Shown here: positions 48,001 to 54,000 of the stretch, in pieces
Numbering within the stretch: position 1 is the stretch's first letter
Layout of the letters: every line of letters begins with the position of its first letter
Origin: Escherichia coli
GTDB taxonomy: Bacteria; Pseudomonadota; Gammaproteobacteria; Enterobacterales; Enterobacteriaceae
Reading direction: 5' to 3' (one strand)
Assembly: GCF_050320075.1 (NCBI RefSeq)
Contig: NZ_CP190018.1
DNA length: 64,000 bases
Position numbers: made by a program

Positions 48001-51000
48001 CGCGGCTCTGGCTTTTCTTGCCGCCAGACGCTGTTCTGCTGAACAGCCCCGGACCTCTGCCTCGATGGCATACAGTTCACCGATACGCTGCAGGGCTTCC
48101 GTGGTGATGTAGGTGGGCGCTCTTGCATGCACATCGTGGATTTTTCTCCGGGCATGAGCCATACACGCGGCTTCCGTTATTCTGCCGGATTCGTATAACG
48201 CCCGGTAACCACCGTAAGCATCGGCCTGAAGCACACCGCTGTAACCGGCCAGGTGATTTTGTGGATGGATACCTTTCCGGTCCGGACTGTACGCGAACCA
48301 GACCGCCGGGGGCATCTGTGAACCGGCGTTACGGTCATCACGGACGTAGACCCACAGCCGGGCTGTCCGGGTTTTACCGCTGCCCGGCTCCTGGACCGGG
48401 ACGGGGATATCATCAGCATGGACTTTACCGGGCATCAGCACATACTGGCGCAGGACGTCATACAGCGGCTCCAGCAGTTCAGCAACAGCACCTGTCCAGC
48501 GCCCCAGTGTGGCACGGCTCAGCTCCACTCCCTGACGACGGTATATTTCTGACTGGCGGTATAACGGCAGATGGTCTGCATATTTCCCGGTGACAACATG
48601 GGCCAGAAGCCCCGCTCCGGCATAACTGCGTGCAATGGGTTTTGAAGGTACTGGTGCCTGCACGATATGGTCGCACCGGCAACAGGCCTGTTTCGGACGT
48701 TGTGTTTCGATAACCTTAAAGGCGCTGCTGATAAGCTCCAGTTGCTCTGACACATCACATCCCAGAGAACTGAGTTCACCACCACAGGCAGGACAGCATT
48801 CCTCTTCCGGCCGGATAACCCGGGTTTCACGGGGAAGTGAGGCCGGTAACGGTTTACGGGCTGAAGACTGGCGCAGGGCGGATGGCAGTACCGGGTCATA
48901 TTGCTCACCCAGCGTTTCCGCCATTTCTTCCTGAAGTGCGCTGATTCGCTCCTGTGCTTCCTGTATCTGCCGTTCGGTTTTTGCACGAAGTTTTTCTGAG
49001 CTTTTACCGAACTGCATACGTTGCAGTTTCGCAACCAGCGCCTTCAGCCGGTTGATTTCGGAAGCATAAGCCGCCACCCGCTGTGAGAGCAGGCGGTTGT
49101 ATTCAGCCATCTGGCGGATGGTGTCCTGTTGCGTCTGCAACAGTGCCCGCAGGCGGGCGTTCTCATGAGCAAGTGAGGTGTCCATATCCTCACTTTACAA
49201 CGGGTTATATGCGGATTCCAGCGCGTTCCGTTCGTTTCGGGTGCTTCCAGTTGATACCTTCAAGAAGCATGGATAACTGAGCCGGAGTAAGGTGCACCTT
49301 GCCGTCACGGGTGACTGGCCAGACGAAGCGGCCCCGCTCCAGGCGTTTGGTGAAGAGGCACAGTCCGTCACTGTCAGCCCACAACACTTTTATCTGGTCA
49401 CCCCGGCGTCCGCGGAAGATGAACAGGTGTCCGGAGAACGGGTCATCCTTCAGGACGTTCTGAACTTTTGATGCCAGGCCGTTAAAGCCATTTCGCATAT
49501 CGGTGATACCTGCAACCAGCCAGATACGCGAACCTGCAGGGAGAGATATCATCAGTGGCTGCTCCCTTTTATTTCGCGGATAAGTGTCTGTAATAACGCC
49601 GGCGTCAGTTTACCTTTAAGCCTGAGAGTTCCGGCCGGCAGAACCAGCTCACAACACAGACTGTCGGACGGTGTATTTATCTGCTCTGGTTCCTGTGCGG
49701 GGGCCGGGATTTTATTATCCGGCTCCGGCGTTAACGTCACGGGAAGCAGTGCCGGCATATTTTTTCCGGAAGGCAGCAGGCCACCTTTCCGGTATTGATG
49801 GCGCCAGTTGAAGAGCAGGTTATCGTTGATTCCGTTTTCCCGGGCGATCTGCGCCACACAGGCTCCGGGCTGCAGTGACTGCTCCACTAAGGCGATTTTA
49901 AACTCATAAGGGAAGTTGGGCCGCCGGGGACGTTTTTTTACCACGGGGGCTTCGGATATAACGGTGCTTTCAGGACGTACGACTGGTACCGTGGAAAATT
50001 GTCCGTAAAGGCAGGCATCAAGTTCCTGCTCCGACATGCCTGCGGGCAAAGGCCACGAAAGGCCAGCTCTCCGAAAGCGCACGAACATACTACAAACTGT
50101 TGATTTTGGTACACCCAGGCGACGCCCGGCCACAACCCGGGGTAAATGTTCTTCAAAGTGAAGACGTAAAGCTTCAGTGATCCAGGTCCGGTGTTTCATA
50201 CGATAGTGTCCATTAAAAATGATGGACATTATTTTTGTAGAGCCGGAGGAAACAGACCAGACGGTTTAAATGAGCCGGTTACGACCAACACTGTCACGTA
50301 ACGCCAGATAACTACAAAAACACCTTTTTCCTCCTGTAAATTGCAGTTCCTGCAAGAACATCAAGGTATAATGTTGGAACAGCGTGTGATACACACTTAG
50401 CATCATGTTTTGTATGTGTTTTTTTAAAACTTTACAACTTTAAAGTCTTTTTCAGGTTAAAGGATACAACTTTAATGTCTCTACACAATTGCAGCGAAGT
50501 CGTCCTGAGCTATTTCCTAAAGATGAAAATTATTAGAGTCGCATTAAAAATGAGCTAATTTTGATAGTGGTTATCTTGTGATTATTTTCTAATGAGCCTG
50601 TGAACTGAGACCCTCCATGCTTAATATAAGGTGGAGGGAAAGGTGATTAAAACTCCCCCAGTGGCCAGATCTTTATAAAATATGAACAGGTTGAAAAAAT
50701 CAGCAACTTAGCTGTTTATTTATACTTAACCACTATGCATTAATGCTGCGTTATTTCATGATACCTAAGAAAAACCAGCGTTACGCAAATAATCAACGCT
50801 GGTTTTATCCGGTACGTTGCAATTATTTTTTAGCAGAACCCGCTTCTAATATTGAAACGATTGAGAACAACGTAAAGCATACCGCTCCCAAACCGACCAG
50901 AACCCGCGAAGGAATAAAATATCCCATATCGGTCTGCGCCATTTCCGCAAGAAACGATGCCAGGAAAAGGCAAAACAGGCAGGTGAAGACGGGAATCATC

Positions 51001-54000
51001 GGTATTCTGTTGGCTAACGAACAGGTACGTCTCCAGACCAGTGCCAGTAGCCAGACTTTTGAGAATATGCTGTAACAGATCATTCCGAGGCAAATGAGGA
51101 TAATGCCGGGAGCCAGTCGGGCGCTTGCATCGGAGCTGACTAACACGTATATGCCCTGCAGCACCGTGATTGAGCCGAGGGTGATGCTGCCAACTTACTG
51201 ATTTAGTGTATGATGGTGTTTTTGAGGTGCTCCAGTGGCTTCTGTTTCTATCAGCTGTCCCTCCTGTTCAGCTACTGACGGGGTGGTGCGTAACGGCAAA
51301 AGCACCGCCGGACATCAGCGCTATCTCTGCTCTCACTGCCGTAAAACATGGCAACTGCAGTTCACTTACACCGCTTCTCAACCCGGTACGCACCAGAAAA
51401 TCATTGATATGGCCATGAATGGCGTTGGATGCCGGGCAACCGCCCGCATTATGGGCGTTGGCCTCAACACGATTTTCCGCCATTTAAAAAACTCAGGCCG
51501 CAGTCGGTAACCTCGCGCATACAGCCGGGCAGTGACGTCATCGTCTGCGCGGAAATGGACGAACAGTGGGGATACGTCGGGGCTAAATCGCGCCAGCGCT
51601 GGCTGTTTTACGCGTATGACAGGCTCCGGAAGACGGTTGTTGCGCACGTATTCGGTGAACGCACTCTGGCCACACTGGAGCGTCTTCTAAGCCTGCTGTC
51701 GGCCTTTGAGGTCGTGGTATGGATGACGGATGGCTGGCCGCTGTATGAATCCCGCCTGAAGGGAAAGCTGCACGTAATCAGCAAGCGTTACACTCAGCGA
51801 ATTGAGCGGCATAACCTGAATCTGAGACAACATCTGGCAAGGCTGGGACGGAAGTCACTGTCGTTCTCAAAATCGGTGGAGCTGCATGACAAGGTCATCG
51901 GGCATTATCTGAACATAAAACACTATCAGTAAGTTGGAGTCATTACCCGCTGACAGAACCTATTTCTCCAATTGTTCACCTGTTGATCCCACAAGTACCA
52001 GACCAACCTATTTTGGCGATACCGATGGCTCAGTTGGTGCAGTTTTGTACGCGCTTTTCGCAACGGGACATTTGGGAATCATGGCTGAAGGAGAAAATTT
52101 CCTTGGCCAGTTGCTTAATATAGAAGATGAAGTTCTCAACGTATTGCTAAGGGAGAACTTTAATGAGCAACTTGACACTAATGTTAATACAATAATCAGT
52201 ATTCTGAACAGAAGAGATATAGTTTTAGAAAGTCTTCAGCCTTATTTAGTTATTAATAAAGACGCTGTGACGCCATGTACGTTTCTGGGTGACCAAACCG
52301 GCGATCGATTTAGTAATATCTGTGGCGATCAATTTATCATCGATTTGTTAAAACGTATAATGAGTATCAATGAAAACGTTCATGTATTAGCTGGAAATCA
52401 TGAAACGAATTGCAATGGTAACTATATGCAGAACTTCACGCGTATGAAACCACTTGATGAGGATACCTACGCTGGGATAAAAGATTATCCTGTATGTTTC
52501 TATGACCCTAAATACAAAATAATGGCAAATCATCATGGGATAACTTTTGATGATCAGCGAAAACGTTACATTATAGGACCGATAACAGTCTCTATTGATG
52601 AAATGACCAATGCTCTCGATCCGGTCGAATTAGCGGCAATTATTAATAAAAAGCATCATACTATAATTAATGGTAAAAAGTTTAAAACTAGCCGGGCTAT
52701 CTCTTGTCGATCCTTTAATCGTTATTTTTCTGTTTCGACAGATTACAGACCTAAACTTGAAGCACTATTAGCATGCTCACAAATGTTAGGTATAAATCAA
52801 GTTGTTGCACATAACGGAAATGGTGGGAGAGAACGCATAGGTGAAACGGGGACAGTTTTAGGTCTTAACGCCCGTGACAGTAAACATGCTGGAAGAATGT
52901 TCAGCATGCATAATTGCCAAATTAACCCTGGTGCGGGGCCTGAGATAACCACTCCCTGGAAGTCTTACCAGCATGAAAAAAACAAAAATGGACTTATGCC
53001 TTTGATTAGAAGGCGCACAATGTTACAGCTCTGAACCATAGACAACATGAATATTAATGTTACTATCTGGTTGAGACTGTTGATAAAACGTAATAAGGAA
53101 TGCTCTGTTCCTGCAACTGAACAGGCGTGAAACGCTATCCAACAGGATGGATACCGTTTTGTCAGCCAGTTTTATAGATCACACTTATGAGTATGCGTGT
53201 TTCATTTACGGCCAGGAATGCTGATGATGACAACATTACTACCCGTTTTCACTAAGCCTTCCACGTTGGCGCTCAATGCTCTGCGCGCTGGTCGTATTTG
53301 CCGTTTCCTTCTTATCCCGGATGGAAGAATCCGCTGAACGTCGTTCGGCGGCAGTTGTAACACGCGTCGTTTGCTTACAGGGATTATGGCGGGTCGATTA
53401 TGGATAAGAGTAAGCGCCATCTGGCGTGGTGGGTTGTCGGGTTACTGGCGGTGGCCGCTATCGTGGCGTGGTGGCTGTTGCGCCCAGCGGGTGTGCCGGA
53501 AGGCTTTGCCGTCAGCAATGGGCGCATTGAAGCGACGGAAGTGGATATCGCCAGCAAAATTGCCGGGCGTATCGACACCATTCTGGTGAAAGAAGGCCAG
53601 TTTGTTCGCGAAGGTGAAGTGCTGGCGAAGATGGATACTCGCGTGTTGCAGGAACAGCGACTGGAAGCCATCGCGCAAATCAAAGAAGCACAAAGCGCCG
53701 TTGCCGCCGCGCAGGCTTTGCTGGAGCAACGCCAAAGCGAAACTCGTGCCGCACAGTCGCTGGTCAATCAACGCCAGGCCGAACTGGACTCCGTTGCCAA
53801 ACGTCATACGCGTTCCCGTTCGCTCGCCCAACGAGGGGCTATTTCTGCGCAACAGCTGGATGACGATCGCGCCGCCGCTGAGAGCGCCCGAGCTGCGCTG
53901 GAATCAGCAAAAGCCCAGGTTTCGGCTTCTAAAGCCGCTATAGAAGCGGCACGCACCAATATCATTCAGGCGCAAACACGCGTCGAAGCCGCACAAGCCA

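Follow-up and report, generated by a model that had tools for sequence, protein, structure and literature searches.

The window, a stretch of 64,000 nucleotides from Escherichia coli (contig NZ_CP190018.1), carries between positions 50823 and 53034 a copy of IS1, here termed copy B, which is flanked on either side by the 3′ part of a gene. These coordinates, as given in the original prediction on this DNA, are exact. The features of the locus, together with a further IS1 in the same window (copy A), are as follows.

50823-51179, minus strand: yhiM 3′ remnant, codons 233-350 and stop, 118 of 350 amino acids of a DUF2776 inner-membrane protein
51179/51180: left junction, last yhiM base joined to first base of the left inverted repeat (IRL), falling on a yhiM codon boundary
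51180-51947, plus strand: IS1 copy B, 768 bp, complete, both inverted repeats present
51180-51202: IRL of copy B, GGTGATGCTGCCAACTTACTGAT
51235-51510: insA of copy B
51429-51932: insB′ frame of copy B
51486-51492: A6C frameshift motif of copy B, AAAAAAC
51925-51947: right inverted repeat (IRR) of copy B, ATCAGTAAGTTGGAGTCATTACC
51947/51948: right junction, last IRR base joined to yhiJ nucleotide 537
51948-53034, plus strand: yhiJ 3′ remnant, third base of codon 179, codons 180-540 and stop, 361 of 540 amino acids
24598-25365: IS1 copy A, inverted relative to copy B and 25.8 kb away

Copy B has the size (~768 bp) and the imperfect inverted repeats of ~23 bp that define the IS1 family, and its insA and insB′ frames are joined by a -1 frameshift at the A6C motif; PGAP labels it as an IS1 family transposase with 'programmed frameshift'. 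Simple insertion of IS1 gives rise to a direct duplication of 8-9 bp of the target. Around copy B a 9-bp target duplication is absent, the left 9 bp being TGAGCCGAG and the right 9 bp CGCTGACAG. This is as expected following deletion or recombination, and it concerns the history of the copy, with no bearing on its membership in IS1. The 768-bp isoform of copy B occurs in 100% identical copies in many chromosomes and plasmids. It differs from copy A at 22 positions and from the IS1A copy of strain VL40 at 28 positions, and its differences from IS1A and IS1B lie mostly past position 487.

On the minus strand, the frame with its stop codon at 50823-50825 remains open over the left junction, and the first stop further upstream is met after 5 codons of IS1 sequence. 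Pfam DUF2776 (PF10951) matches this remnant with profile positions 233-347 of 348 only. Breakpoints were determined by flank alignments to E. coli strain 144, the closest relative in which the block is intact; window positions 50488-51179 are identical (692/692 nt) to the yhiM 3′ end and the yhiN-yhiM spacer of this strain. Both sequence and position (convergent with yhiN, next to yhiL) identify the frame as an orthologue of yhiM. Promoter, start codon and codons 1-232 are all missing from it, and the yhiM promoter and start that were mapped earlier (PMC6604978) fall within the deleted interval. A full-length YhiM, with ~348 PF10951 positions, 10 predicted transmembrane helices and its own start and promoter, is not encoded here. 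Judged from its sequence, the segment 50823-51179 is a yhiM remnant, predicted to yield no functional member of YhiM.

The plus-strand frame ending at 53034 has 10 open codons within IS1, and its first mechanical start is a TTG at 51934, inside the right inverted repeat; the apparent start is IS1 sequence, just as predicted. The remnant is in frame with K-12 yhiJ, and its flank is identical to strain 144 over 1452/1452 nt. It represents yhiJ and not the paralogue yhiL: identity to strain 144 yhiJ is 100% from nucleotide 537, the remnant lies directly upstream of yhiY-yhiI, and the alignment to yhiL at the junction is weak, YhiJ and YhiL being 39% identical as proteins. The N-terminal domain is gone, 178 N-terminal codons having been deleted together with the upstream spacer, and a full-length protein of the YhiJ/YhiL family with N-terminal domain and own start is not present. 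Pfam DUF4049 (PF13258) is matched at positions 1-333 of 333 by remnant residues 15-324 (E = 4e-178); the domain is whole because the break lies 15 codons upstream of it. RefSeq calls both remnants pseudogenes in matching genomes, that of yhiM as 'missing N-terminus'. The evidence for truncation is structural, not statistical.

Sequence comparison of the DUF4049 domain with the PDB gave no match, and comparison with Metallophos, WipA_Phos and T4SS_Wip gave sub-threshold matches only. An AlphaFold2 model of the domain, computed from a 5-sequence alignment, reached a pLDDT of 47, which is too poor for a fold search. The domain carries PPP-type metallophosphatase motifs.

No IS1 promoters facing outward to either remnant were found. 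The sole promoter match in IS1 is the known inward one in IRL (51187-51214), and promoter-like sites are in total no more numerous than in shuffled sequence. The original prediction had described the two frames as yhiM-like and yhiJ-like, both without starts and N-terminal parts, and had taken both genes to be probably nonfunctional. The naming is right in view of the DUF2776 and DUF4049 matches and the identity to strain 144, and the truncation is borne out by the partial DUF2776 match and the 178 absent yhiJ codons. As to function, the statement is to be divided: on this sequence evidence, it is close to certain that yhiM would be nonfunctional here, and only probable that yhiJ would be, DUF4049 being kept whole. 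The latter judgement follows from the finding that no promoter-like site faces the yhiJ remnant.

In K-12 as well as in the closest intact relative the genes are arranged in the order yhiM(-), yhiL(+), yhiJ(+), which also agrees with the literature (PMC6604978). The original prediction had proposed an alignment to a genome with the genes intact. In the alignment to strain 144, window position 51179 corresponds to position 5535 of the reference locus (L006) and window position 51948 to position 9001, so that exactly 3,465 bp are missing (L006 5536-9000, which are positions 333458-336922 of strain 144). These are made up of 696 bp of yhiM, 382 bp of the divergent yhiM/yhiL spacer, 1590 bp of yhiL, a spacer of 261 bp and 536 bp of yhiJ; the K-12 counterpart of the gap measures 3,482 bp. 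Hence yhiL, a yhiJ paralogue of 529 amino acids that is intact in this lineage (strain 144) and a pseudogene in K-12, is wholly lost. The missing target duplication and the gap relative to strain 144 together demonstrate that DNA was lost at copy B, as had been proposed. The notion of yhiM and yhiJ as a divergent pair does not hold, yhiL having been overlooked. A divergent spacer has indeed been deleted, but it belongs to yhiM and yhiL, yhiJ not being the divergent neighbour of yhiM. With 32-38% GC the lost block is rich in AT, a second copy of it is absent from the 64-kb window, and the deletion ends precisely at the two termini of an IS1 that was itself kept intact. The likeliest reading is an IS1-associated chromosomal deletion that left copy B between unrelated flanks.

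The distribution of this structure was surveyed in 5,426 complete E. coli genomes by queries spanning the junctions. The left junction is present in 2 genomes, and the right junction, as one aligned piece, in 3, the third being strain VL40. Both junctions together occur only in YZLc1-3 (NZ_CP123240; chicken faeces, China) and Ec-U3 (NZ_CM192149; human urine, Burkina Faso). A collapsed IS1 repeat might in principle have misjoined fragments of yhiM and yhiJ during assembly, as repeats can do, and IS1 is multicopy, with 22-26 matching places per record. Such an artefact is nevertheless hardly credible: the structure of 3,171 bp is base-for-base identical in these two independently sequenced and assembled complete genomes from different countries and hosts, both junctions are nucleotide-clean at the IS1 termini, and an analogous structure exists in VL40. 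In the remnant flanks, zero substitutions relative to strain 144 are found over 692 + 1452 nt. The deletion is recent, clonal and clone-specific. Evidently the block can be dispensed with, as around 22% of complete E. coli genomes are without any match to it.

Strain VL40 has the same yhiJ junction with another IS1 isoform and another left junction, and only ~69 nt of yhiM are left in it. As the isoforms differ, the flanks have diverged by ~4% and the far ends differ, we read the yhiJ 536/537 junction as having arisen independently in two lineages. One might speculate that its recurrence reflects selection for a truncated YhiJ without the N-terminal domain, expressed via IS1 read-through, rather than an IS1 target hot spot only, but we regard this as very improbable.

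A different fate of the missing DNA, namely that the interval was inverted or relocated within the genome, through IS1 duplicative inversion or through recombination with a further IS1, for instance copy A, was considered as well. Intramolecular transposition may yield inversions (PMC9330008), and copies A and B are inverted at a distance of 25.8 kb. However, the segment between them (Tn7-like island, duplicated yhiN end, yhiM 3′ end) is collinear with that in WWCOL-236 and CP131_Sichuan, A and B, with 22 differing positions, are not sister copies, and copy A is flanked by Tn7-like tnsA and TOPRIM fragments and by none of yhiM, yhiL and yhiJ. As the block is moreover untraceable anywhere in the 64-kb window, this appears very unlikely. 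A composite transposon formed by copies A and B, or an inversion between them, was likewise tried as a candidate and rejected, given mismatching outer flanks, a collinear interior and the 22 differences.

For the deletion itself we infer, with somewhat better than even confidence, an IS1 insertion followed by a one-ended adjacent deletion, this order of events being part of the proposal. From the ancestral order yhiN, yhiM(-), yhiL(+), yhiJ(+), yhiY, yhiI, an IS1 would have entered the AT-rich block, most simply at yhiJ nucleotide 536/537. Through intramolecular replicative transposition, which would depend on transposase and not on RecA, a free end of this element may then have targeted another site of the same molecule at a distance of 3.5 kb. 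The intervening DNA would thereby be lost, with an intact IS1 remaining between two unrelated flanks and no target duplication, and the outcome would be the loss of the yhiM promoter with 232 codons, of the whole yhiL, and of the yhiJ promoter with 178 codons. In keeping with the behaviour of IS1, the block is rich in AT and carries IS1 at many other positions in other strains, and IS1 transposition was replicative in 176/176 tested events (PMC12428005). Against this route stands that its intermediate, a single IS1 with target duplication at one of the junctions, is missing from the 5,426 complete genomes.

Homologous recombination between direct IS repeats is a possible but clearly less probable route. 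An IS1 that had entered yhiM behind codon 232 and a second, independently inserted and equally oriented copy in codon 179 of yhiJ would be recombined in a RecA-dependent manner, excising 3.5 kb and one IS1. The end product would be identical, that is, a single intact IS1 without duplication, the interval gone and the ends at the IS1 termini. IS1 has struck the locus repeatedly in other E. coli strains, at many further positions in yhiJ, yhiL and yhiM; several of these insertions, in the 5′ portion of yhiJ and in yhiM, share the same orientation, and the yhiJ site was used in two lineages. Yet three events are needed instead of two, and neither of the two earlier insertions was found: among the 5,426 complete genomes, 0 carry a plain IS1 insertion flanked by its 9-bp duplication at one or other junction. 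Such precursors would be recognizable by their junctions, ...CCCCAGTTCGCTGACAG followed by GGTGATGCTGCC for an IS1 in yhiJ with the duplication CGCTGACAG, and ...GTCATTACC followed by TGAGCCGAGAATAATAACC for an IS1 in yhiM with the duplication TGAGCCGAG. The sequence of copy B is that of a common isoform and uniform throughout, and no in-situ hybrid (mosaic) signature was found in it, which counts only against recombination of differing isoforms; with a common isoform and no mosaic formed in situ, sequence does not separate adjacent deletion from recombination.

With regard to physiology, YhiM has been linked to GABA export and survival of acid stress (PMC6604978). By analogy, the clone should lose YhiM-dependent GABA export and acid-stress fitness. 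It is also without YhiL and full-length YhiJ, for the loss of which, both being uncharacterised, no phenotype is predictable. The case is an ordinary deletion in a dispensable region, nothing new in kind. It may serve as a clean worked example of the erosion by IS1 of an accessory, AT-rich block in the E. coli chromosome, in which the annotation should record three genes as affected, not two.

Among known systems, simple IS1 insertions in yhiJ/yhiL, as in 118C_1_fosA3 and CP131_Sichuan, involve the same element, locus and orientation and lead to split pseudogenes; in 118C_1_fosA3 the matched span exceeds the query by 9 bp, the length expected from a target duplication. Both gene halves persist in those strains, whereas the present locus has lost 3,465 bp, including an entire gene. 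The closer counterpart is the IS1 'adjacent deletion', a classical outcome of intramolecular replicative transposition, which is said to have been described by Reif and Saedler in 1975 and reportedly also by Turlan and Chandler in 1995. Like that class, the present deletion starts at an IS1 terminus, leaves IS1 intact without flanking duplication, and has its variable far end in AT-rich DNA; read here from the end product alone, it shows no difference in kind. In VL40 another deletion shares the yhiJ endpoint but differs in its far end, one IS1 end thus being fixed and the other variable.

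Two reading frames run open into opposite ends of a complete IS1 element (copy B), as the original prediction had described with correct coordinates. The element is composed as follows:

51180-51947, plus strand: IS1 copy B, complete (768 bp), both terminal inverted repeats present
51235-51510, plus strand: insA of copy B
to 51932, plus strand: insB' frame of copy B, overlapping insA
51486-51492: AAAAAAC frameshift motif of copy B

The minus-strand frame (stop codon at 50823-50825) crosses the junction and meets an upstream stop after 5 codons of IS1 sequence. It comprises the last 118 codons of yhiM, matching Pfam DUF2776 at profile positions 233-347 of 348. 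The plus-strand frame, which ends at 53034 and is open for 10 codons within IS1, has its mechanical start at TTG 51934 in the right repeat; its apparent start is IS1 sequence, as had been suspected. Direct reading of the sequence displays no evident ribosome-binding site at this TTG, and no promoter-like site facing the yhiJ remnant was found in 50700-52300, where the only such site, an IS1 promoter (51187-51214), points inward. The frame extends from the third base of yhiJ codon 179 to the stop (361 of 540 residues) and keeps the Pfam DUF4049 domain whole, with a match to positions 1-333 of the 333-position profile. Sequence and position identify it as yhiJ rather than its paralogue yhiL: from nucleotide 537 on it matches a close relative's yhiJ at 100% identity, yhiY-yhiI-rbbA-yhhJ (all intact) follow directly downstream, and its alignment with yhiL at the junction is only weak, the YhiJ and YhiL proteins being 39% identical. 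The names yhiM and yhiJ, formerly assigned by position, are hence upheld by the domain matches and this identity. Both remnants are annotated as pseudogenes in RefSeq.

The DUF4049 regions of YhiJ and YhiL (window 51948-53034; positions 6614-8203 and 8465-10087 of the strain 144 locus, L006) carry motifs resembling those of PPP-type metallophosphatases (YFGDTDG, FLGDxTGDRF, LAGNHE and HHG), which are kept between the two paralogues. Pfam Metallophos, Pfam WipA_Phos and NCBIfam T4SS_Wip match only below threshold, and a structure prediction from 5 sequences (pLDDT 47) was too poor for a fold test.

Among the intact relatives found, E. coli strain 144 (NZ_CP023364) is the closest; its YhiI, RbbA and YhhJ proteins are identical to those of the window and its downstream IS remnants are the same. 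Its gene order, in window orientation, is yhiN(+), yhiM(-), yhiL(+, 529 aa), yhiJ(+, 540 aa), yhiY, yhiI; in K-12 it is yhiJ(-), yhiL(-), yhiM(+), yhiN(-). yhiL is intact in this lineage and a pseudogene in K-12. The left flank of copy B is identical to strain 144 over 692/692 nt, ending at L006 position 5535, and the right flank (1452/1452 identical) resumes at 9001. Alignment to an intact genome, which the original prediction had proposed for measuring the deletion, thereby gives a missing interval of exactly 3,465 bp; the same breakpoints on K-12, read off with the aid of the K-12 features, enclose 3,482 bp. The lost parts are:

yhiM, 232 codons: 696 nt
spacer between the divergent yhiM and yhiL: 382 bp
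the whole of yhiL: 1,590 bp
yhiL-yhiJ spacer: 261 bp
yhiJ 5' end: 536 nt

No other piece of this block was found within the 64-kb window. The proposed picture, in which two divergent genes had a single, now deleted promoter region in common, thus holds for the 5' losses but not for the geometry, since yhiL, the divergent partner of yhiM, lay between yhiM and yhiJ and was wholly lost.

The 9 bp flanking copy B are unequal (TGAGCCGAG versus CGCTGACAG), and therefore copy B is not a simple insertion. Both deletion ends coincide with the IS1 termini to the nucleotide and the element is intact, as is characteristic of an IS1 adjacent deletion. We consider this the probable origin; it would proceed by intramolecular replicative transposition of IS1. 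Adjacent deletions start precisely at the element terminus and stop at distances that vary (PMC9330008, citing Turlan & Chandler 1995 for IS1), and replicative transposition was reported for 176/176 IS1 events (PMC12428005). A less likely though credible route to the same end product is recombination between two IS1 copies in direct repeat. The copy B isoform is 100% identical to IS1 in many chromosomes and plasmids, and because it is so common no hybrid signature is displayed; among 5,426 complete E. coli genomes, searched with queries across each junction, no precursor with a simple IS1 insertion was found at either site. Neither observation tells the two routes apart. An inversion or translocation involving the inverted copy A (24598-25365, minus strand) is very unlikely, given that the DNA between copies A and B is collinear with that in other strains, that the two differ at 22 positions, and that copy A is flanked by Tn7-like fragments. 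Also very unlikely is an assembly error at the copy B junctions, since the structure recurs base for base in two complete genomes sequenced independently.

At the left end (51165-51194), the yhiM bases beside IS1 (GTGATTGAGCC) resemble the IS1 terminus (GTGATGCTGCC) at 8/11 positions, so that the translated junction reads VGSIT|LGSIT. Similarity of targets to IS1 ends has been described for IS1 hot spots, and this likeness may be of that kind or a coincidence.

In strain VL40 (NZ_CM177011; locus L004, 5933-7855), an IS1 of like orientation abuts yhiJ at exactly the nucleotide where copy B does. That element is of a different isoform (IS1A, 28 differences from copy B), its yhiJ flank has 5 differences in about 112 positions, and at the far end, which lies elsewhere, only about 69 nt of yhiM remain; the event seems to be independent. 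About 7 same-orientation IS1 junctions are visible within about 560 bp, and by our own rough estimate two of them would coincide by chance in about 4% of cases under uniform targeting. The coincidence is likely due to a local preference of IS1 for this target and suggests a target hot spot at yhiJ nucleotide 536/537. The shared junction precedes the DUF4049 domain by 15 codons; no evidence of selection for this site was seen.

The remnants show zero substitutions relative to strain 144, and both junctions together occur in only 2 of the 5,426 genomes, YZLc1-3 from chicken faeces (China) and Ec-U3 from human urine (Burkina Faso), both of which also have the adjacent ISCro1 and Tn7-like end. The deletion is a recent, clone-specific event. 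The yhiM-yhiL-yhiJ locus is a frequent IS1 target, with IS1 in or beside yhiJ, yhiL or yhiM at several positions in most of the best 30 records. The AT-rich block (32-38% GC; L006 5536-9000) is present at a coverage of at least 80% in 4,157 of the 5,426 genomes, has no match at all in 1,184 (22%), and is dispensable.

A Tn7-like island of about 26.7 kb (23818-50487), with the silver and copper resistance operons sil and pco, is inserted in the last codons of yhiN with the direct repeat (A)TTGCA at both sides; annotated yhiN continues into it (1,224 bp versus 1,203 bp in the intact relative). The same yhiN/yhiM site was reported for Tn7/pco/sil transposition from plasmid pMG101 (PMC8417528). 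Copy A, which is IS1B-like, also lacks a target duplication (ATAAAATCC / TGAAACCCG) and has an N-terminal piece of tnsA on one side and a TOPRIM-domain fragment on the other. Apparently a second IS1-associated deletion removed Tn7-like transposition genes, which, if true, would leave the metal-resistance island immobile. ISCro1 (IS66 family; 47583-50282; tnpA, tnpB and a 523-aa transposase), which separates pcoE from the island's left end, is a simple insertion with GACCAAC on both flanks and an empty site in strain WWCOL-236.

YhiM has 10 predicted transmembrane helices and a mapped promoter, and has been linked to GABA export under acid stress (PMC6604978). With its mapped promoter, start and two thirds of the protein lost, yhiM must be inactive. 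All elements (IS1, both remnants, the type of rearrangement) are already known, and public records already carry the annotated structure; the case is a routine one of genes in an accessory region lost through IS activity.
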